64,000 nucleotides of DNA from Terriglobia bacterium (GTDB taxonomy: Bacteria; Acidobacteriota; Terriglobia; 2-12-FULL-54-10): positions 736,001 to 800,000 of the forward strand of contig CAXVYR010000003.1 in assembly GCA_963666975.2 (NCBI GenBank). Direction: 5' to 3'. The translations under genes and the position numbers were made by a program. Under the pieces are notes generated by a model. The model saw only the letters and a list, made by a program, of their open reading frames with translations. It was not told where the DNA came from and searched no databases. Below are positions 26,175-37,850 of the stretch, in pieces. Position 1 is the first letter of the stretch; the number at the start of each line of letters is the position of its first letter.

Positions 26175-26977
26175 ATGAATTCGCACGGAAAATCCTGGAC
26201 GGCACTGCTGCTTCCGGCAATGTTTCTAGGGATGGCGATTCCGTCCGCGGCACAGTCCCAGTTTCCCGATGGGAAGGGGAAAGAGATTGTCGAGATGGTG
26301 TGCAGTCAGTGTCACGGCCTGAATCACGTCTCGGACTCAAGGCGAACCCAGGAAGAATGGGAAAGCGTGGTCAGCGACATGGTTGCACGCGGAGCGCCCT
26401 TGCTGGTCGATGAAATCGATACCGTGTCGGAATATCTGGTCAAGAATTTCGGTCCGCAGAGCCCCCCAGAGCTGCTTCCCAGAAAGCTGCTAGTGCAAGC
26501 GCGGCAACCACGCTGTCGGAAAGCCAGGGAAAAGAGATTGTCGAGACGGTATGCACGCAGTGCCACGGTCTGAATACCATTTCCAGTGCCGGGTACCGTT
26601 CCAAGGAAGAATGGGAAGGTGTGATCAGCGACATGATCTCCAGGGGCGCGCCCTTGCTGGACGATGAAATGGACACTGTAGCCGAATATCTGACCGCAAA
26701 TTTTTCCCCGAAGGCATCCTCCGGCAGTTCCGCGAGCGCTTCCGGCCAAGGTGCGGCCAATACAAACTCGGCAGCCACATTGCCCGAGGGCAAGGGGAAA
26801 GAGATCGTCGAGATGGTCTGCAGCCAGTGCCACGGCCTAAATAACGTGGCCGGTTCGCGACGAACCAAGGAAGAATGGGAAAGCGTAGTCAGTGACATGG
26901 TCGCCAGAGGCGCTCCCTTGCTCATCGATGAAATTGACCTTGTCACGGAATATCTGGCCGAGCATTGGGGGCCTTAA
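26175..26977 (+). CDS. Periplasmic tri-domain cytochrome c (three CxxCH repeats), frameshift near 26460-26500
   Basis: Signal peptide; three ~65-aa repeats G.GKEIVE.VC(S/T)QCHGLN...EEWE.V.SDM..RGAP; repeat 1 is in a different frame from repeats 2-3. Confidence 0.85.
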
Positions 26978-27093
26978 GCAGCAAGCCCCAGCCGCTCTGC
27001 TCAGATTGCCATAGCGGCTCGAGCGAGGATATTCAGAAAATATCTTCTGGGAATCATGGTTCATTCGGTGGATTTGCTTTAAGGAGAGTGCGT

Positions 27094-28989
27094 ATGAGAA
27101 AACTCGTCCAGGACCTTGTAACTTCCAAGCTTTCCCGGCGCGGCTTCCTCGCCAGCATGGTGGCGGCTGGTTACACCCTTTCTGCTGCCCAATCGGCCCT
27201 GCAATCGGTCTCGCCGTTTGTTCCCGGGGCCCACGGAGCCGAGACCGCTGAGTCCTTCACCCGCTCTGTGACCGGCACAGGAGGCGACCTGATGGTCGAG
27301 CAGATCATTGAGGCGGGCGCCCGCTACCTGTTTGTCACCAACGGCTCCGGCCTCGGCCCGCTGTGCGACGCCCTGGTCACACGTCCCCAGATTCAGCTGA
27401 TCCAGGCCGTCCACGAAGGCCAGGCCGTGGCGATGGCTGACGGTTACGCCAAAGCCTCCGGCAAGATCGGCTTTGGGATGTACAGCCGCGTCGGGCTGCC
27501 CAACTCCTCCTCCAACATGTACAACGCCATGAAGGACCGCACCCCGCTGGTGCTGCTCAGCGATCACGCCGATTCGACCAGCGAAGGGACTGACAGTCAC
27601 GAGGACCTTTACGATTTCCTGGAACCGGTGAAGCAATTCACCAAGTGGCGTTGGGTGACACACGAGGCAAGCCGGATCCCGGAATGGATACGCAAAGCTT
27701 GCAAGGTATCCACGGTCCTGCCCGGAGGCCCCACCTATGTTCGTTTTCCGCGCAACCTGCTGTACCGGGAAAACGTAACGGCGCCGGTCTTTGCGGGCGA
27801 AGCTTTCCACATCCCAATGGATCTTCGGCCGGACAAAAAGCAGGTAGAGCGCGCCGCGAAAATGCTTCTGGAAGCCTCTTCGCCGCTCTTCTATGTCGGG
27901 CGGGAGGTTACACAGACCCATGCCCGCGCATCACTGGTGGAGCTGGCCGAGCTGCTGGCCATCCCGGTGGTCCAAGGCAGAAGTTACTGCGCGGATTTTC
28001 CAAACTTCCATCCGCTCCACGTCGGTGAACTGCGCACGACGCGGATTCCCAAGCAGGCCGATTGCCTCGTCAATTTCGGCGCCCGTTTCCGCCCGCGGGA
28101 AAGAAGATTCCTCAATCGGATTCCCACTGTGATCCACGCCACCGTGGAGCCAGAGGTGCTGGGCCGCAACACCGCGCTGCAGGCGGGGTTGGTCGGCAAT
28201 ATCGACATGGTGGCGCGCGACCTGATAGACGCCGTAAAAAGCATGGCAACGCCACAAAAACTGAAGGAACGTACGGCGGAGCGCCGGGCGGAGATCTCTT
28301 CCTACACAAAACGCCTGCGGGAGGCGCGCATTTCCTTGGCGCGCCGCAGCACGGGCAAGCAGATCCCCTGGCAGCGTCTCATGGTCGAACTGAACGATTT
28401 ACTCGACCCCGACGCCGTGATTATTCCCGAAATCGGCTCCGACGAAAAGTTTCTCAATTTTTTCACCTTCGCCGACGATGCGAAATTAAAGGTCGGCCGC
28501 ACCGAGGGAATGGCGCTCGGATGGGGCATGGGAGCTTCGGTGGGCGTCAAGCTCGCGCTTCCCAACCGGCAGGTCGTCACCATCCAGGGAGACGGCGGTT
28601 TCCTGTTCGGGCAGACCGATGCCTTGTGGACGATGTCCCGCTACGACGTGCCGGTGCTGACGGTCATCGCGAACAACCAATGCTACGAGGCTACGCGCCA
28701 CCGGATCATGGGCCGCGGAGGAGCCGCGGGGAAAGCTCAACGTGACTATATCTCCTACCTGGGCGACCCGGAAGTCGACTTCACCCAACTGGCGGCAGCC
28801 TACAAAATCGGCGGCGAGATCGTGCACAACACCGACCAGTTGCGCCCGGCCATCCAGCGGGGCATCCGCGCACTCCGCGACGGACGCCCCTATTTGCTGG
28901 ATGTCCGCGTTCAGACCATAGGAGTCGGCGCCGAGCTTTCCTGGTATCCCGATTTCTCGCTGGCAGAAACCCGGGAACAGAAGGTATAA
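27094..28989 (+). CDS. Thiamine-diphosphate-dependent enzyme with Tat signal (benzoylformate decarboxylase/acetolactate synthase-like), paralog 1
   Basis: SRRGFL; HEGQAVAMADGYAK; QGDGGFLFG...ANN ThDP motif; SD AAGGAG. Confidence 0.88.
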   Translation: MRKLVQDLVTSKLSRRGFLASMVAAGYTLSAAQSALQSVSPFVPGAHGAETAESFTRSVTGTGGDLMVEQIIEAGARYLFVTNGSGLGPLCDALVTRPQIQLIQAVHEGQAVAMADGYAKASGKIGFGMYSRVGLPNSSSNMYNAMKDRTPLVLLSDHADSTSEGTDSHEDLYDFLEPVKQFTKWRWVTHEASRIPEWIRKACKVSTVLPGGPTYVRFPRNLLYRENVTAPVFAGEAFHIPMDLRPDKKQVERAAKMLLEASSPLFYVGREVTQTHARASLVELAELLAIPVVQGRSYCADFPNFHPLHVGELRTTRIPKQADCLVNFGARFRPRERRFLNRIPTVIHATVEPEVLGRNTALQAGLVGNIDMVARDLIDAVKSMATPQKLKERTAERRAEISSYTKRLREARISLARRSTGKQIPWQRLMVELNDLLDPDAVIIPEIGSDEKFLNFFTFADDAKLKVGRTEGMALGWGMGASVGVKLALPNRQVVTIQGDGGFLFGQTDALWTMSRYDVPVLTVIANNQCYEATRHRIMGRGGAAGKAQRDYISYLGDPEVDFTQLAAAYKIGGEIVHNTDQLRPAIQRGIRALRDGRPYLLDVRVQTIGVGAELSWYPDFSLAETREQKV

Positions 28990-29063
28990 CCGGAACAAAT
29001 TGAATTCGGACCTGTTCGGGCGCGTTGTCAGCAGGTTCACCCCATGCGGCAAGGAGCATCTTT

Positions 29064-30947
29064 ATGAGAAAACTCGTCCAGGACCTTGTAAATTCCAAGC
29101 TTTCCCGGCGTGGCTTCCTCGCCAGCATGGTGGCGGCTGGTTACACCCTTTCCGCAGCCCAATCGGCCCTGCAATCGGTCTCACCGTTCCTTCCCGGAGC
29201 CGAAGCCGCTGAGTCCTTCACCCGCTCTGTGACCGGCACAGGAGGCGACCTGATGGCCGAGCAGATCATTGAGGCGGGCGCCCGCTACCTGTTTGCCACC
29301 AACGGCTCCGGCCTCGGCCCGCTGTGCGACGCACTGGTCACACGTCCCCAGATTCAGCTGATCCAGGCCATCCACGAAGGCCAAGCGGTCTCGATGGCCG
29401 ACGGTTACGCCAAAGCCACCGGCAAGATCGGCTTTGGGATGTACAGCCGCGTCGGGCTGCCCAACTCCTCCGCCAACATGTACAACGCCATGAAGGACCG
29501 CACCCCGCTGGTGCTGCTCAGCGATCACGCCGATTCGAGTAGCGAGGGAACCGACAGCCATGAGGACCTTTACGATTTCCTGGAACCGGTGAAGCAATAC
29601 ACCAAGTGGCGCTGGGTGGCACACGAGTCGAGCCGGATACCGGAATGGATACGCAAGGCCTGCAAGGTCTCCACGGTCCTGCCCGGAGGCCCCACCTATA
29701 TTCGCATTCCGCGCAACCTGCTGTATAAACCAAACGTAACAGCATCGGTCTTTGCGGGCGAAGCTTTTCATATCCCGATGGAGCTGCGGCCGGACAAGAA
29801 ACAGGTGGAGCGCGCCGCGAAACTGCTTCTGGAAGCCTCTTCCCCGCTCCTCTACCTCGGACCGGAGGTGAGCCAGACCAACGCCCGCGCGTCGCTGGTG
29901 GAGCTGGCTGAGTTGCTGGCCATCCCGGCGACGCAAGCGCGGAGCTTTTACGCGGATTTTCCGAACTTCCATCCGCTCCAAGTCGGGGAATACGGCCGCA
30001 CGATGCGGTATCCCAAAAATGTTGATTGCTTTGTCAATTTCGGGGCACGCTTCGGGGGCCGGAGCAGGCTTCCCGAGGGGATCTCCATCATACATGCCAG
30101 CGTGGAGCCGGAGGCGCTAGGACGCAACACCCCGGTGCAGGTGGCGCTGGTGGGCCATCTCGACCATGTGGCGCGCGACCTCGTCGAGGCTGTAAAGAGC
30201 ATGGCGTCGCCGCAGAAACTGAAGGAACGCACGGCTGAGCGCCGGGCGGAGTGCGCCTCCTACACGAAGCGCATGCGGGAGTCGCGCGTCACCCTGGCCC
30301 GCCGGGCCAGCGGCGACCCGGTGCCCTGGCAGCGGCTCATGGTCGAGTTAAACGACCAGCTCGACTCCAACGCCGTCATCGTCGAGGAGTTGGGAACGGA
30401 GGGCAAAGTCCTGAACTTTTTCTCGTTTGCCGATGATGCCAAGTTAAAGATCGGACGCACCGAGGGACGGTCTCTCGGCTGGGGCGTGGGAGCTTCGGCC
30501 GGGGTCAAGCTCGGCCTTCCCAATCGCCAGGTCGTCTCCTTGCAGGGAGACGGCGGTTTCCTGTTCGGCCAGACCGATTCCCTGTGGACCATGTCCCGCT
30601 ACGACATTCCGGTGCTGACCGTCATCACAAACAACCAGGGCTACGAGGAGCCTCGCTGGAACATGATGAACCCGCGACGACGCGCAGGAAAAGCCGGACG
30701 CGACTATATCGGCTACCTGGGAAATCCGGATATCGATTTCACGAAGCTGGCGGCGGCATACAACATCGGCGGCGAAGTCGTGCAAAACACCGATCAGTTG
30801 CGCCCGGCCATCCAGAAAGCCCTCCGCGCGCTCCGCGACGGACGACCCTACTTGCTGGATGTGCGCATCTTGAGGACCGGCACCGGCGCTGAGGTTTCTT
30901 GGTATCCCAAATTTTCGCTGGCCGAGCACCGGGAGCGAAACGTATAG
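29064..30947 (+). CDS. Thiamine-diphosphate-dependent enzyme with Tat signal, paralog 2
   Basis: SRRGFL; HEGQAVSMADGYAK; QGDGGFLFG...TNN; 5' third nearly identical to paralog 1. Confidence 0.88.
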   Translation: MRKLVQDLVNSKLSRRGFLASMVAAGYTLSAAQSALQSVSPFLPGAEAAESFTRSVTGTGGDLMAEQIIEAGARYLFATNGSGLGPLCDALVTRPQIQLIQAIHEGQAVSMADGYAKATGKIGFGMYSRVGLPNSSANMYNAMKDRTPLVLLSDHADSSSEGTDSHEDLYDFLEPVKQYTKWRWVAHESSRIPEWIRKACKVSTVLPGGPTYIRIPRNLLYKPNVTASVFAGEAFHIPMELRPDKKQVERAAKLLLEASSPLLYLGPEVSQTNARASLVELAELLAIPATQARSFYADFPNFHPLQVGEYGRTMRYPKNVDCFVNFGARFGGRSRLPEGISIIHASVEPEALGRNTPVQVALVGHLDHVARDLVEAVKSMASPQKLKERTAERRAECASYTKRMRESRVTLARRASGDPVPWQRLMVELNDQLDSNAVIVEELGTEGKVLNFFSFADDAKLKIGRTEGRSLGWGVGASAGVKLGLPNRQVVSLQGDGGFLFGQTDSLWTMSRYDIPVLTVITNNQGYEEPRWNMMNPRRRAGKAGRDYIGYLGNPDIDFTKLAAAYNIGGEVVQNTDQLRPAIQKALRALRDGRPYLLDVRILRTGTGAEVSWYPKFSLAEHRERNV

Positions 30948-31102: not shown

Positions 31103-31789
31103 ATGAGAATTGACCCGCCCGGGAGTCTGAACAATCCACGAACTTTATTTGCCGGGAGCCTGGGAGCGCTCTGTCTTTTAGCCGCCGCCCTGGCGATAAC
31201 CGCCCCTCTGCTTTCCGAACTGCTGCAGGAGGCAAACGCCAAAAGCGCGCTGCAAACCCCGGCAGAGGAAACCCAAGATTCCTCACAAGCTGTGCCGCGC
31301 GTTTCCGTTGGGGAAATTACCGGAACACCGGGCGCCAGTTTGATGCTGCCTCTTTATTACACAGCGGACCCCAACGTCCCCTTGCGCTCTCTTACCGTCG
31401 AAATCGACTACGTCAGCAATAATTTGAAATTCAACAAAGCGTCCCGTGGCGTCGTGACCGAAAAGGCAGGCGCCGACGTGGCTGCGACCTTGACCGATGG
31501 AACCCCGAATGAAAACGGGCTCACGCGCTCCAAGCTGCAGATTGCCACTTCCTTGACTGAACAGAACCCGCAAGAAGGAATCCCATCCGGGTTGCTGGCT
31601 TTCCTCCTGTTTCGCATCAATCCGAAAGCGAAGCCTTTTGCAATTCGCCTGAACACCAGGGTCGTCTCGGCTGAAGACCTCCAATCTCCGCCACAAAAGG
31701 TGACTCAAGTCGCAGCCACGCCCGGATTAGTGGTGGTGGAGCTTGCCGATGTGCTGCCCGAAGCGACCTGCTTCTTCTTTACCCATTAA
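31103..31789 (+). CDS. Exported cohesin-like beta-sandwich protein ending CFFFTH
   Basis: N-terminal hydrophobic segment; VSVGEITGTPGASLMLPLY...GLLAFLLFRI pattern resembles cohesin domains. Confidence 0.55.
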   Translation: MRIDPPGSLNNPRTLFAGSLGALCLLAAALAITAPLLSELLQEANAKSALQTPAEETQDSSQAVPRVSVGEITGTPGASLMLPLYYTADPNVPLRSLTVEIDYVSNNLKFNKASRGVVTEKAGADVAATLTDGTPNENGLTRSKLQIATSLTEQNPQEGIPSGLLAFLLFRINPKAKPFAIRLNTRVVSAEDLQSPPQKVTQVAATPGLVVVELADVLPEATCFFFTH

Positions 31790-31850
31790 CGGCGATCGCG
31801 CCGGGGGCGGGCACGCAAGGAAAGCCTGCGGAGGAGGAACCGGCGGATTG

Positions 31851-31947
31851 CTAACGCGCGCGGCTCGGTCAGTGCAGCCCAATCAGCACGCCGATTCTGA
31901 GCCGCGACCGTGAGGGAGCGGGTAAATAGTGTTTTTCAACAACCTGC
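31851..31947. repeat. REP/MITE-like element, inverted partial copy of 34506-34633
   Basis: Shares GAGCCGCGACCGTGAGGGAGCGG and GTTTTTCAACAACCT. Confidence 0.65.
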
Positions 31948-31979
31948 TAAGAGAATACCTTCGGCATTCGTGTGTAGTC

Positions 31980-32135
31980 AGAGCCGCGCGCCTGTCCCGC
32001 CTGCCCTGAGCATAGCCGAAGGGAGTGAAGCCGAGGGATCAGCAAGCGGTCGCCGAACGCCCGGTGCGCAAACAAAGCTGGGTTGACCGCTCCATTACTG
32101 TCCCATTCGGCAAGCTCAGGGCAGGCGCGGCTCGG
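31980..32135. repeat. Nested palindromic REP-like element between convergent genes
   Basis: CCTGCCCTGAGC..GCCGAA...TTCGGCAAGCTCAGGGCAGG inverted pair inside GAGCCGCGC/GCGCGGCTC. Confidence 0.5.
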
Positions 32136-32179
32136 ATGGATTCACCAACAATACACTTTACACCAATCCAGAAACCGCC

Positions 32180-34447
32180 CTAAAAGATCTCCGGGAAATA
32201 ATAAGTCAATATGGTATTCAGCCGCATATCGGCCACAATGAGTTCCTTGTTCTTGGGATTCAAGGCCACTCCGCGCGGCTTCTTCAGCAGGCTCTTCGGC
32301 CCCCCGATCTTCCAGCGGGGCGGCACGTCGCCGCTGTCGTTGATACTCCAAACGCCAACAAAAATTTCCTCCTCCGGCTCCATACCGCTGCCGCCGGGCT
32401 GAGCCGCGACAATCCAGCCTTTCGGAGAATATATTTGGAGCTGATTAATGCGAGTAATGGCGGTCTGGGGACCATCGATCACGGTACGCGGCTTCACATT
32501 CCCTTCGTCTGTGCGGTTAAACGTAAACAGAGCCCGGCCTACGCTGGTCACAATCACATTATGGACCGGATCAACGGCCAGCGTGGAAGTCCGCAATCGG
32601 GTATCCGGCCCTTGGATCACACGGATCGGAGCCACATCGCCATTGCCTTCCCGGGGGAAAACCAGAATCCGGTCCACCGAGGGCACGAAGATTTCATTGT
32701 GCACCGGATCAACATCCACCCGGTCCGGCCGCTTCAACTGTGTACTGGGGCCTTGGATGACCCGGATCGGAGGCTCCTCGCCATCGGCTCCTCCGCGGAA
32801 AACCAGGATCGCCTGTGCAAAGGGGTTGGTTACGATGAATTCATCATGAACCGCGTCATAGCGAATGTCGTGCATGGTACGGCTTAAAAGAGTCTTTTGT
32901 CCGGCAATCAGTCTGGTGGGCACCGCATTCTCCTCCGCCATCCTGGCGAAGGCCGCAATCTGCGGGTGGGCCACTCAGTTGGGCACCAGGATTTCCTCCC
33001 GCTTGCTGTCGTAGCCCGCAGCTCCTGGGTTCCCGATAGCCAGCGCCTGTTTGCCGAGCGGCGCGCTGCGGATGGTCCGCAGCGGCGCGACATCCCCGTT
33101 AGCCGCACGCGGAAAAACGGTGGCCGAATGGTTCCCCATGTTGGATACCCACATCTCATCGTTCTTCAAGTCCACAAAAATGCCGGTGGGGTTCTTGATA
33201 CCGGTCTTGGGCCCCTTGATGACCCGGGTGGGCGCCACGTCACCGCTGTCGGTCATACGAAAGACCAGGACCGAGTCGTCGGCGTCATTGGCGACGTAGA
33301 GTTCTCCGCGCTCGGAATCGACAAACATCGCCGCCGGCCAGTTCAGCTGGGTTTCAGGACCTTCAATCACCCGTAGCGGCGGCGTATCTCCCTCCGCTTT
33401 GATCGAATAGATGGAAATCGAAGGAGGATCAGACTGGCCGGAACCGCGTAGCGCACGGTCCCGGTCGAGCGGCCAATTTTCTTTGCGCTCCCTCCTTTGG
33501 GTAGGAAGTCCCGTTACAGCAATGTCTCCCTGGTCCGGACCCACATCGGGACGAACCTGATGGACTGAACCATGATTGCTGACAAACATCCAGTTATTCT
33601 TCGAGTCCACCGCAATGCCGTGCGGGTCTTCGAGTTCCGTCCGGTCGCCTTGCAGCAACCGCAGAGGCGCTTCGTCGTCCGCGGCCATCTTGTTGTACAC
33701 CACGACTGCGTTGTCGTGCTGGATCGTGAGGAACAACTCCTGATTTTGTTCATCGACAGCGATCCCGAAGGTCCCATGCGGCGTGGCCAACTCCCTTTTG
33801 GGCGGCACGTTCCCCCGGGCTTCGCGCCCGAAGATAACCAGCGTATTGACCGTGTCGTTGTTGACCGAATAAACATCTCCCGTATTCTGGTCCAAATACA
33901 GCCCGCAGTTGAACTCAAGCTTGGTCCGCAGTCCGCCCACCATGCGCTTCGGCTCGGTCATGGTGGCGTTGGGAGGAGTATTGTCCAGCCGGTTGAACAC
34001 CTTAAAACCGAACAGGTTTTCATCCTGCAGATAGACCTCGTTCGTATTGACGTCCACTGCCACGGCGCTGTAGGTGGGATAGGTGTCCCGGATCATCCGT
34101 ATCGGTTCCCGGTCGGCATCGACGGCAGGCCTGTCCTCATCGAGCGCCGGCGCGCTCCTGTTTGCCGCCATTTGCTCCTGCTGCAGCGCGGCCACCAGCG
34201 TGGTGTTCGTGCTGGCCGGCACCCACTGGCACATCTCCCCGCCCATCATGCCGTCTGCCATGGGCATGGGGTCGGAGGAAACCAGTTGGGGATACCCTGT
34301 GGGTCTGCGCAAGGCGGCCTCGGATGCCGCGCTCCATTCCCGCTGTTTCGCCTCCCCGGTAAACAGCACCCATGCGGCAACGGCAATTACCAGAGAGATC
34401 ACCGCAGTCACGCTGATTTTTTGTACCACGCACGATGCTCGGGCCAT
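32180..34447 (-). CDS. Exported NHL-like multi-blade beta-propeller protein, putative selenoprotein (UGA 32975-32977 = residue 491 of 755)
   Basis: ORFs 32975..34477 and 32180..32974 abut in frame; TGA falls mid-blade (YDSKREEILVPN*VAHPQIAAF); downstream hairpin; same TGA in the paralog; SD GGAGG before ATG 34447. Confidence 0.85.
32932..32952 (-). promoter_or_regulatory. Putative bacterial SECIS hairpin (paralog 1)
   Basis: mRNA CCUUCGCCA-GGA-UGGCGGAGG; loop starts 32 nt after UGA and begins with GG. Confidence 0.75.
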
Positions 34448-34505
34448 ACGAATTTCGCCTCCTTCCAAATCTGCCACTAAACGGAAACAGTTCGGCTGCT
34501 ATAAC

Positions 34506-34633
34506 AGGTTGTTGAAAAACGCCATTTGCCCGCTCCCTCACGGTCGCGGCTCGGAATGGGCGTGCTGATCTGGCTGCATTTGCCGAGCCGCGCGCGTTAG
34601 CAAGCGGACCCTGCACCAGTTTTTCAACAACCT
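34506..34633. mobile_element. MITE-like element with 15-bp terminal inverted repeats and internal REP-like palindrome
   Basis: AGGTTGTTGAAAAAC ... GTTTTTCAACAACCT, between the two propeller paralogs. Confidence 0.65.
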
Positions 34634-34723
34634 CCTCAACGAAAGGCAAACAGCCGGGCTGTGGAAGCCTTGTGCCAGGCCTCCTGCCGGACTGCTTGCC
34701 AGAACAATCAAAGGACAATCAAA

Positions 34724-36949
34724 CTAAAATATTTCCGGAAAGTAATACGTTAACACGCTGTTCAACCGCATGTCGGCCACAATGACTTCTTTGTTCTTGG
34801 GGTCCAGCGCAATCCCCCGCGGCTTCTTCAGCATGCTCTTCGGCCCGCCGATCGTCCAGCGGGGCGGCACGTCGCCGCTGTCGTTAATGCTCCAAATACC
34901 GACAAAGACGTCTTCGGGCTCCTGTTCCGAGCTGAGGCCGGGCTGGGCCGCAATAATCCACCCTTTCGGCGGATAGACCCGAAGCTGGTTGATACGGATG
35001 ATGCGGGTCTTGGGGCCCGAAATTACGGCTTTCGGCTTGACGTTGCCATTGGCGGTGCGGTCGTAAATCAGCAGCGCCCCCGGAGGGCTGGTCCCGCCCC
35101 GGTGCTGGATTCCAACGATCAGCAAATCGTGGACCGGATCAATGGTCACTCCGCCGGTGTTCTTCAGCATCGTGTCAGGGCCGCGCAGCACCCGGATGGG
35201 AACCGTGTCGCCGTTCGCTTCCCGGGGATAGACCATCACCCGGTCGCTTTCGGGAATGTAGATTTCGTTGTTCACAGGATCAATCCCCAGGCGGTCCGGC
35301 CCATCCATCATGGTGCTGGGGCCCTGGATCACGCGCAGCGGAGGCTCCTCGCCGTCGGCTCCTCCCCGGAAGGTCAGCACGGCTTGCGCAAAGGGATTGG
35401 TGACGACGAACTCATCATGGATGGCGTCATAGGCGATGTCGTGCATGGTGCGCGCCAGCAGCGTCCGCTGCCCGGCCAGCAGTCGCGTAGGCTGCGTATT
35501 CTCCTTCCCCAGCCTGGGGAAGCTCGCAATCTGCGGATGGGCCACTCAGTTGGGCACCAGCACTTCTTCCCGCTTGCTGTCATAGCCCACCGCTCCCGGA
35601 TTCCCGATAGCCAGCGCCACCTTCCCTAGCGGGGCGCTGCGGATGGTGCGCAGCGGCGTCACGTCGCCGTTCGCTGTGCGGGGGTAAACCGTGGCGGAGT
35701 GGTTGCCCATGTTGGAGACCCACAGCTCATTGTTCTTGAAATCGACAAAAATCCCCGTGGGATACTTGATTCCAGTCTTCGGTCCCTTGACAATCCGCGT
35801 GGGCGCCACATTGCCGCTGTCGGTGGTGCGGAAGACCAGGATTGAATCATCGGCGTCGTTGGCGACGTACAGATCGCCGTTTTCCTCGTCCAGGTACATC
35901 GCCGCCGGCCAGTTCAACTGCGTTTGGGGACCCTCAATGATCCGAATGGGGGCCGTATCACCTTCCGCCTTCAGCGGATGAACCGTGATCGAGGGCGGCT
36001 GAAACTCGCCGGAGCCGGAAACCCTGCTGGCGTCCCAAAACCCGGTGGAGTTGTCAAAACCGGGGCTGTAGCTGACGCTGCCGTGGTTGGCCACAAACAT
36101 CCAGTTGTTCTTGGTGTCGATAGCAATGCCGTGAGCGTCTTCGAGCTGTGTACTCTTCCCTTCAAGCGTCCGAATCGGCTCTTCCCTGCCCTCGGCCATC
36201 TTGCGGTACACCACCACCTTGGGCGGGTGCTGCACGGTGAGGTACATCTCTTCGGCGCCCTCATCCACGGCGATGCCCCAGGTCCGGTGCGGAGTTCGCA
36301 ACTCGCGCTTGGGAGGCACGTTTCCGCTGGCCTCGCGCCCGAAAATCACCAAGGTGTCCACCGTGTCGTTGCTCACCGAGTAAACGTCGCCGCTTTTCGG
36401 GTCCACATAGAGTCCGCAATTAAACTCGAGCTTGGTGTTGATGCCTCCCACCATGCGCTTCGGCTCCGTCATGGTGGCGCTGGGCGGAGTGTTGTCCAGG
36501 CGGTTGAATACCTTGAAGCCGAACAGGTTCTCGTCCTGCAGATAAACCTCATCGGTGTTGGTATCGACGGCGACGGCGGCGTAGGTGGGGTAGGTGTCCC
36601 GAATAATTCGCGCCGGAGCGCGGTCCGCGTCGATGGTGGCGCCGGGGTCGACCGAGGTGCGGGCCTCGCCCTGCGGATGCCGCAGCGCGGCCAGCATAGT
36701 AATGTCGCCAGAGGTGGTATCGGCGCTGGCCGGCACCCACTGGCACATCTCCCCATTCATCCCCGGCATTTGCTCATAAGCAACCAATTGGGGATACCCT
36801 TTGGGCCTGCGCAGAGCAGCCTCGGATGCTGCGTACAACTGGGGCCGCTTTGCCTCACCGGCAAACAGCACCCAGGCAGCAGCGGCGGCCACCAAGCACA
36901 GCAAAGCCAGCAGGCTACTGCTCGGTCGCAAATGGAATCCTCGGTGCAT
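34724..36949 (-). CDS. Exported NHL-like beta-propeller paralog, putative selenoprotein (UGA 35546-35548 = residue 468 of 741)
   Basis: ORFs 35546..36964 and 34724..35545 abut in frame (REEVLVPN*VAHPQIASF); SD GGAGG before ATG 36949; both paralogs end TYYFPEIF. Confidence 0.85.
35504..35522 (-). promoter_or_regulatory. Putative bacterial SECIS hairpin (paralog 2)
   Basis: mRNA CUUCCCCA-GGC-UGGGGAAG; same +32 loop position; G-C to C-G and U-G to U-A changes versus paralog 1. Confidence 0.75.
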
Positions 36950-37010
36950 TGATACCTCCGTCAATGACGAGCATGAATACCCACAGCAGCTTCTACGGCG
37001 CGGTTTTGAT

Positions 37011-37500
37011 CCTAGGAATAAACTTTTTGGCCTCCAGGCAGTTGAAAGTGTACATCCATTTGCATCCTACCGAGCACAACTTTTCCTCCGAGAGGGCCAT
37101 CGGCTCCCAGCCTCCCTTTCCGGATCCCCCAAAACCGTCCAATCAGCATCCAGAACCAGCTTTTTCAGACAACTCTCCATACCTGGGGGATAGCGGCATC
37201 GTTTTCTTGTGTGCCGTAGCCCCGGCTATCCCGACGGGAGCGACAGCCCATCTATTCGCCCCAGCATGCTAGCAAATAAACGTCTCGTCAGATGGCTCTC
37301 TGCCAGCAATAGCCAATAGTAGCGGGCATGCTTAATCAGGCGTCCTCCTCACCAGCCGCTGCTGGAGGCTCGTCAAGGACCAGTTCCCGATTCTCTGTGG
37401 CACCACCAGCCGCCGCCAGCAGACGGCAATGATGGTCAGCCACATAGTTGGAGCGGAACCGATGGTCGCCAGACTGCTCTGCCGTCCCGGCTTATTATGG
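37011..37500 (-). mobile_element. IS1380 3' end and degraded transposase fragment
   Basis: ~37225-37345 is nearly the exact reverse complement of ~22450-22570; flanking pieces show multiple deletions. Confidence 0.75.
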
Positions 37501-37504
37501 CTCG

Positions 37505-37850
37505 ATCGGCGCTGGCCGGCACCCACTGGCACACCCGTCGGGCCGTCTTCTCCCCATTCATCCCCGGCATTTGCTCATAAGCAACCAATTGGTAAACCTC
37601 CGCTTGGCAAAGGCCGCGTCAGCCCGAAACGCGATACCCTTTGGGCCTGCGCAGAGCAGCCTCGGATGCTGCGTACAACTGGGGCCGCTTTGCCTCACCG
37701 GCAAACAGCACCCAGGCAGCAGCGGCGGCCACCAAGCACAGCAAAGCCAGCAGGCTACTGCTCGGTCGCAAATGGAATCCTCGGTGCATTGATACCTCCG
37801 TCAATGAGAGCATGAATACCCACAGCAGCTTCTACGGCGCGGTTTTGATA
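37505..37850 (-). repeat. Duplicate of the 5' end/upstream region of propeller paralog 2 (~36720-37010), interleaved with IS1380 pieces
   Basis: ~37633-37850 is nearly identical to ~36793-37010; short IS-derived inserts such as GGCAAAGGCCGCGTCAGCCCGAAAC. Confidence 0.8.

Follow-up and report, generated by a model that had tools for sequence, protein, structure and literature searches.

A very probable selenocysteine insertion hairpin after the in-frame UGA of a beta-propeller gene family in uncultured acidobacteria

Two tandem genes of a Terriglobia bacterium each carry a single in-frame TGA, and in both mRNAs this UGA is followed, at an identical distance, by a stem-loop that is very probably a bacterial selenocysteine insertion sequence (bSECIS). 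Both genes lie on the minus strand of a 64,000-nt stretch of DNA (assembly GCA_963666975.2, contig CAXVYR010000003.1, positions 736,001 to 800,000 of the forward strand), hereafter called the window, whose numbering is used throughout. An earlier note, made from the letters of the window, had proposed the SECIS reading, and three kinds of evidence support it here: codon choice under the hairpin is constrained beyond what the peptide demands, the hairpin decays in homologues that encode cysteine (Cys) at the site, and the genome holds the machinery for selenocysteine (Sec). Each gene becomes one open frame once its internal TGA is read through, and the two are 70% identical to each other. Paralog 1 (32180..34477, from translation, Pfam and AlphaFold2) has about 765 codons with the TGA at codon 501 (32975..32977, in mRNA order 32977-32975), and paralog 2 (34724..36964, from translation) has about 746 codons with the TGA at codon 473 (35546..35548, in mRNA order 35548-35546). 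The putative Sec residue falls within the motif LVPN-U-VAHPQIA in both.

Hairpins after the UGA and the published bSECIS model

Numbering the U of UGA as position 1, both apical loops start 32 nt past the UGA at position +35, which is a spacing of 31 nt. The large hairpin of paralog 1 (32932..32952, minus strand; mRNA positions 26-46) reads CCUUCGCCA-GGA-UGGCGGAGG, a 9-bp stem under a GGA triloop, and that of paralog 2 (35504..35522, minus strand; 27-45) reads CUUCCCCA-GGC-UGGGGAAG, an 8-bp stem under a GGC triloop. The stem runs from pair 26-46 up to pair 34-38 and closes on the loop G35-G36-N37. A mini-hairpin occupies positions 13-25 of the spacer: in paralog 1 (32953..32965, minus strand) it reads CCGC-AGAUU-GCGG with the four pairs C13-G25, C14-G24, G15-C23 and C16-G22, and the large stem abuts it with zero nt between. 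In paralog 2 (35524..35536, minus strand) the outermost pair is C-A, the three G-C/C-G core pairs are present and A17-U21 is possible inside them. When the minus strand was re-read, the sequences, coordinates and spacing of both large hairpins, with loops that open with GG, came out as the earlier note had them, and so did the two pair differences between paralogs (G31-C41 replaced by C31-G41, and U29-G43 by U29-A43), the translated peptides AAFARMAEE and ASFPRLGKE, and the smaller CGCA-GAU-UGCG hairpin at positions 14-24 of both mRNAs. In RNAfold predictions the large hairpin belongs to both the minimum-energy and the centroid structure of each mRNA, with ordinary folding z-scores that are taken up below.

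Homologous sites gathered from genomes and metagenomes numbered 226, of which 210 have TGA, 15 TGC and one TGT; 150 non-redundant TGA sequences were aligned for the covariation and codon tests. This set was compared with the bSECIS model that underlies bSECISearch, as given in the main text of a 2026 review (PMC13188914): a 3-9 nt apical loop above an upper stem of 4-16 bp, a G at the first or second loop position (in most cases G and then G or U), a spacing of 16-37 nt and a folding energy of -7.5 kcal/mol or below. The propeller hairpin has a 3-nt loop on an upper stem of 7-9 bp (9 and 8 bp in paralogs 1 and 2, respectively). The first loop base is G in 210/210 TGA sites and the loop opens with GG in 207/210, with one subfamily showing GUU. 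Spacing is 31 nt throughout, in the two window genes as in the 150 aligned homologues, and the 21-nt hairpin has a mean energy of -10.4 kcal/mol, with 196 of the 210 sites at or below -7.5. The functional context agrees as well, with an in-frame UGA, Cys in homologues, and a genome that encodes tRNA-Sec (anticodon tca), SelA (563.5 bits, cut-off 267.9), SelB (371.8 bits, cut-off 242) and SelD (349.5 bits, cut-off 125), the last from a gene with its own in-frame TGA.

Like the elements described in the main text of PMC13188914, the hairpin is a stem-loop inside the coding sequence just past the Sec-UGA, and its A-GGN-U apex fits the pattern N1-G-[G/U]-N-N2 with N1 and N2 paired. It differs from that description in a spacing that is invariant and close to the top of the 16-37 nt range, and in the conserved 4-bp mini-hairpin in the spacer, abutting the stem, a feature not found in the passages of section 5 and the Fig. 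2 legend that describe the model. Judged by this model, the hairpin is not a new type of element but an ordinary bSECIS whose one unusual accessory is the mini-hairpin. In the fdhF SECIS of E. coli, SelB binds by way of the apical loop, which has a G-U or G-G motif; the distance from the UGA is important, the loop lies about 20 nt past the UGA and the stem has a bulged U. The propeller hairpin, in contrast, has a triloop 31 nt past the UGA and no bulge is seen. A search of 32000-37200 with Rfam covariance models returned no match at E <= 1, a result that is uninformative if Rfam has no bacterial SECIS model.

Constraint on the RNA across homologues

The peptide that follows the site, VAHPQIA-x-FAR(L/M)A, is itself conserved, Cys-form proteins included, and codon choice in the 150 aligned sequences was compared with in-frame background codons of the same genes. 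Within the large hairpin, Arg+34 is encoded by AGG in 144/149 sequences against 39/599 in the background (97% vs 7%), Ala+31 by GCC in 137/139 (background 48%), Ala+40 by GCG in 140/146 (31%) and Phe+28 by TTC in 96% (74%). The mini-hairpin shows the same behaviour at Pro+13, which is CCG in 146/148 sequences against a background of 53%, and at Ala+22, which is GCG in 144/147 against 31%. The unpaired control codon Ala+7 follows the background (GCC in 53% vs 48%). Because the sequences are related, the p-values of this test are too favourable, but protein identity between the copies is just 50-70% and their synonymous sites elsewhere vary. Constraint on the RNA goes further than the peptide requires, and the conserved peptide cannot explain the choice of codons.

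Outside both hairpins, the Val codon directly after the UGA (32972-32974 and 35543-35545) is GTG in 135/150 homologues against a background of 41%; this preference may be a context effect on the competition between termination and Sec insertion.

Geometry is equally fixed. From the UGA to beyond the hairpin the 150 sequences align with zero gaps, and at least six of the seven upper pairs are intact in 207 of the 210 TGA sites. Over the same 150 sequences 94.1% of cells in the two-helix structure pair, against 34.7-56.1% when the partners are slid along the alignment. Double changes occur at 8 of 13 pairs where shuffled alignments average 2.7, and covariation scores 0.172, compared with 0.105 after shuffling; 0/500 shuffles reach any of these measures. 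RNAalifold, run without a supplied structure, predicts seven pairs of the large stem. The basal pair 27-45, which links a purely synonymous third codon position with the third base of the following D/E/K/N codon, covaries strongly: it appears as CG in 35 cases, AU in 29, GC in 20 and UA in 19, with 43 unpaired, and it is paired in 103/144 clades against 50.6 by permutation (reached in 0/2000), six control column pairs staying near expectation.

Individual compensations point the same way. TTC/GCG becomes TTT/GCA, synonymous on both sides, in 5/150 aligned sequences. GCC/GCG becomes CCC/GGG both in the window's paralog 2 and in a gene of another genus with a near-identical local peptide (L227; orthology here was judged without a tree), and it becomes GAC/UCG elsewhere, with the peptide FDRLS. 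In the GUU-loop subfamily A34-U38 is replaced by G-C, with the peptide FAGSA. The earlier note held that pairing is kept at the cost of amino-acid identity, and the stem does survive the peptide changes FPRLG, FDRLS and FAGSA by means of compensating bases. For the mini-hairpin, C16-G22 is exchanged for A-U in one sequence (L217), and in another (L046) its pairs are retained although HPQIA is replaced by FSRIA.

Cysteine-codon forms, other Sec genes and rival readings

The 16 sites with a Cys codon comprise 14 from one young clade (L132-L144, L158, L174) and two single diverged forms (L127 and L131), and in the tree they fall inside Sec clades, with four state changes needed. The metagenome scan took the 80 loci nearest the database protein P0005, and about 76 other Cys-form proteins were compared as peptides only. 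Remnant SECIS-like structures are known in Cys homologues derived from Sec forms, as described in parts of PMC1794560, and the young Cys clade likewise retains its stem after the change of TGA to TGC or TGT. Here the decay can be traced stepwise: in 5/14 members of the young clade AGG has become AGA or CGA, with loss of the second loop G, a synonymous change breaks a mini-hairpin pair in 4/14, and the whole hairpin is gone in the two older forms. One of these, L127, reads TTC CCC CGC CTT GCG (peptide F-P-R-L-A) and has lost the stem (-5.2 kcal/mol), whereas its nearest Sec relatives, at short distance, keep the full hairpin; the other, L131, reads TTC GAG CGC ACC GCC (F-E-R-T-A) and has lost the hairpin (-1.4 kcal/mol), whereas the Sec forms with the most similar peptide keep it. 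Taken together, the loop GG is kept in 9/16 Cys forms against 147/150 Sec forms, and the mini-hairpin core is intact in 10/16 against 143/150. The earlier note had staked its reading on this comparison of UGA and Cys-codon homologues, and the outcome favours a SECIS: all 210 UGA homologues have the hairpin at an unchanged offset, and it decays in the Cys forms.

A second comparison comes from the same genome, which was scanned for stems of at least 7 bp with a GGN triloop, placed 19-41 nt beyond a TGA in frame. Of its 43 hits nine are the propeller genes, and most of the others look like chance. Three further genes have the in-frame TGA at a catalytic Cys position. The SelD gene (contig C4:1360349, plus strand) has its UGA followed by GUCCAAA-GGU-UUUGGAC, a 7-bp stem with the GGU loop at +24. 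A Pfam-confirmed AhpC/TSA-redoxin gene (C4:1108800, plus strand) has the TGA at a W-U-GAC redox site and a 7-bp stem with a GGA loop at +25, and a likewise Pfam-confirmed rhodanese-domain gene (C4:1884988, minus strand) has it at the active-site position, with a 7-bp stem and a GGA loop at +21. The propeller hairpin and the hairpins of these three independent selenoprotein candidates are alike in apical design. Among the remaining hits, L234 and L236 were dropped as chance on having no Pfam match, and L235 as its desaturase domain starts only after the TGA.

These genes bear on a different assignment of roles, in which the mini-hairpin is the element read by SelB, or both hairpins form one composite, and the large hairpin serves another purpose such as ribosome pausing. 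The mini-hairpin does carry synonymous constraint, the compensatory change in L217 and decay in Cys forms, its loop AGAUU has G in second position, and it starts about where the minimal E. coli fdhF element sits. We nevertheless consider this assignment very unlikely. The stems of SelD, AhpC/TSA and rhodanese carry the GGN triloop on 7 bp and have no mini-hairpin, and the outer pair 13-25 is unpaired in 33/150 sequences. The distance from UGA to the mini-hairpin loop, 13 nt, is also below the 16-37 nt range of the model, and the loop reads GA where the model has G followed by G or U (main text of PMC13188914).

The hairpin could also be a by-product of the conserved peptide F-A-R-L-A-(D/E), encoded by a palindromic run in an RNA that has no function. 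In keeping with this, most of the 92 Cys-form proteins also have FAR[LMTSA]A after the site, and the stem persists in the young Cys clade. Codon usage largely refutes such an origin, with AGG, GCC, GCG and CCG at 96-99% against backgrounds of 7-53% and a nearby unpaired Ala codon at background. Moreover, the stem outlives the peptide changes listed above through compensating bases, the synonymous position 27 covaries with 45, and the diverged Cys forms, whose peptides F-P-R-L-A and F-E-R-T-A are related, use CGC instead and have lost the stem, so that we regard a by-product of the peptide as most improbable.

Finally, that the UGAs are true stops, or are read through without selenium by a near-cognate tRNA in genes that are split or decaying, is barely credible: gene callers do split these genes and one database entry (P0004) has W at the site, but more than 200 copies keep an open conserved frame past the UGA (median 274 codons), the UGA sits at one invariant site where homologues have Cys, the Sec machinery of the genome is complete and TGA is its commonest ordinary stop. 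TGA ends 522 of the 1425 long open frames of the genome, so an altered genetic code is excluded; it is also the terminal stop of 87/203 family genes, each of which has one internal TGA, always at the one conserved site.

Several observations weigh against the large hairpin being a SECIS. Folding z-scores relative to shuffled sequences are -0.54 and +0.35 for 100 nt after the two UGAs, and -2.03 and -0.69 for 63 nt; by single-sequence energy either hairpin alone is within chance, and the case is a comparative one. The minimum-energy fold of 66 nt uses none of six tracked central pairs (28-44 to 33-39) in 52/210 sites. Most pairs of the upper stem are uninformative, as this stem is nearly invariant, and the double changes at 30-42, 31-41, 32-40 and 34-38 are found in 1-5 sequences each, which are probably one or two events each. 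A FastTree phylogeny gave 60 sister pairs, 23 of which differ at 27-45, and 20 of these differences break the pair and three keep it, no better than control column pairs; since most such changes break it, the basal pair is only loosely held over short times. The description of the hairpin as covarying, made in the earlier note, thus stands in so far as double changes and the covariation score exceed shuffles, and needs tempering in that independent changes in the upper stem are few and a single basal pair covaries strongly. The contrasts between Sec and Cys forms rest on three or four lineages, with 14 of the 16 Cys sequences in one clade; FAR[LMT]A is kept in Cys-form proteins and the stem in the young Cys clade, so there is some protein-level constraint on these codons. 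As for the other Sec genes, the GGN-triloop scan was designed to find that very motif, and the propeller loop lies 10-14 nt farther from the UGA than the loops of SelD, AhpC/TSA and rhodanese.

With the large hairpin as the SECIS, insertion could proceed as follows. The ribosome would hold the UGA in its A site with the hairpin, 26-46 nt downstream, still folded outside the ribosome. The GGN triloop, closed by A-U on a G+C-rich stem of 7-9 bp, would be the binding site for the C-terminal domain of a SelB loaded with Sec-tRNA(Sec), and selenocysteine would be delivered to the UGA in competition with release factor 2, after which translation would run for about 270 further codons. The base of the stem lies 10-14 nt past the UGA in the SelD, AhpC/TSA and rhodanese mRNAs, against 22 nt in the propeller genes. 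As the mini-hairpin fills this difference and abuts the SECIS stem, we infer that its 13 nt may fold up the extra spacer and leave an effective distance from UGA to stem base of 9 nt plus a helix junction, close to that in the other three mRNAs. SelB binding, Sec insertion itself and this role of the mini-hairpin are proposed here as a model.

The propeller family, its distribution and its surroundings

Paralog 1 has an N-terminal hydrophobic helix followed by a large tandem beta-propeller of about 650 residues. Pfam NHL (PF01436) matches with 28.3 and 35.8 bits over a gathering threshold of 20, and the Lactonase 7-bladed propeller (PF10282) with 26.7 and 25.8 bits over 21.7; these matches are marginal and tell the fold class only. 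The NCBIfam equivalogs for YncE (NF052280; 22.3 bits, cut-off 400) and 6-phosphogluconolactonase (NF008258; 22.2 and 17.6 bits, cut-off 370) stay far below their cut-offs. An AlphaFold2 model built with 50 homologues is confident (pLDDT 87.2, pTM 0.83) and has a long helix at 23-56, where the sequence is hydrophobic, then a poorly modelled linker and an all-beta propeller region at 119-765. Blade repeats above the Pfam cut-offs and the all-beta model thus liken the protein to NHL-repeat, YncE and lactonase propellers, from which it differs by placing a tandem propeller of this size behind an N-terminal membrane helix. A Foldseek search of the PDB with the model returned generic tandem WD-like propellers only (TM about 0.3) and no functional lead.

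Across 50 Sec and Cys homologues the Sec/Cys site (501, paralog 1 numbering), His504, Arg522, Arg533, His536, Asp545 and Glu546 are invariant, and Cys83, in a CxW motif of the N-terminal linker, is nearly so. From their conservation, these residues are possible candidates for active-site or resolving functions.

The window genome has nine copies of the family, with TGA at the same motif in each. Within its order the family occurs in 12 of 14 genomes, nearly all matches having one TGA. The pattern of UGA plus both hairpins counts 9, 23, 26, 17 and 20 units in five genomes (the first being the window genome, and the 26 lying in a single 3.8-Mb contig), and its reversed control counts 0. Outside the order, one of 400 sampled genomes of the phylum has the family (two candidates were scored per genome), and around that genome it is present in 7 of 61 searched, itself included, mostly with TGA. 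The 27 genomes searched from other families of the class yielded no member. Full-length relatives in the protein database number 2954 at E <= 1e-20, and in the best 120 of these the Sec site is Cys in 92 and W in one, with 27 unmatched by the motif search.

Two metatranscriptome runs contain short contigs, one of 270 nt identical to the window at 34019-34288 and another identical at 34307-34477, and two 50-nt pieces that span the UGA and hairpin with 4-5 differences each; contigs in RNA libraries are no proof of transcription, and the uncovered parts say nothing. A DNA run that holds the whole gene shows contig depth rising from about 8-15 to 88 and then 427 over the UGA/hairpin segment alone (32873-33026), and a stretch of about 75 nt there is the part of the gene most alike (at least 90% identity) among the many copies in that run.

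Full-text searches of the published literature turned up no account of a selenoprotein of the propeller, NHL, lactonase or YncE kind, nor of an acidobacterial selenoprotein expansion. The main texts of PMC13188914 and PMC13326102 have zero mentions of propeller, NHL, lactonase, YncE or Acidobacteri, and that of PMC9312934 zero mentions of propeller, NHL, lactonase or Acidobacteri; in the searched text of PMC12013277 the sole match is one Acidobacteriota row in a table of test genomes. The 111 families of BSepDB, whose list lies outside the texts searched, may include this one under another name. For comparison, Table 2 of PMC1794560 counted four selenoproteins in three families for Acidobacteria in 2006, and the largest bacterial selenoproteome reported in the searched text of PMC12013277 has 46 genes from many families, in a deltaproteobacterium. 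The propeller genes apparently constitute an unusually large and undescribed selenoprotein family of uncultured acidobacteria. We advance the full claim tentatively, as possible rather than probable: an undescribed family of membrane-anchored tandem beta-propeller selenoproteins with Sec in PN-U-VAHP, present as 9-26 UGA-plus-SECIS units per genome of 3.3-4.2 Mb in one uncultured acidobacterial order, which would exceed any expansion of one selenoprotein family known from a bacterium, and served by a two-hairpin SECIS whose mini-hairpin folds away an over-long spacer.

With the hairpin as a SECIS, the two apparently split genes, like their more than 200 relatives, would encode full-length selenoproteins that automatic annotation misses. 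Should the family prove undescribed, one small order of uncultured acidobacteria would have 17-26 selenoprotein genes of a single family per genome, which would revise the picture of bacterial selenium use and point to extracytoplasmic selenium-dependent chemistry. The natural variants of one putative SECIS, with compensated stems, a GUU-loop subfamily and decaying Cys forms, offer a data set on recognition by a non-model SelB, and the mini-hairpin a testable idea on the control of spacing.

The neighbours of the gene pair (an amidohydrolase, two TPP enzymes and an ABC ATPase) give no hint at function; the TPP-dependent enzymes are themselves tandem paralogs on the plus strand just upstream of the region (26965-28989 and 29025-30947). 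On the minus strand at 37490-37798 (contig position 773490-773798) a fragment resembles family residues 8-96 only, has an unrelated TGA inside and is probably the remnant of a third tandem copy. An 8.7-kb contig of the same assembly, set against 31700-32400 of the window, repeats the 3' end of paralog 1 (residues 631-765) at 99% and shares one GGN-triloop scan hit with the main contig (position 767707); it looks like a duplicate of this region that the assembly left unmerged.

The spacer between the two paralogs (34506-34633; also 31931-31948) holds a nested palindrome whose outer arms, 15 nt and perfect, lie 98 nt apart and whose inner arms, of 25 nt, are 80% complementary. The genome has 60 occurrences of the outer arm AGGTTGTTGAAAAAC at no more than one mismatch, against 2 for the reversed control, and the copies are often inverted pairs 100-230 nt apart. 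The palindrome is a dispersed intergenic palindromic element of the repetitive extragenic palindromic (REP) or miniature inverted-repeat transposable element (MITE) type.

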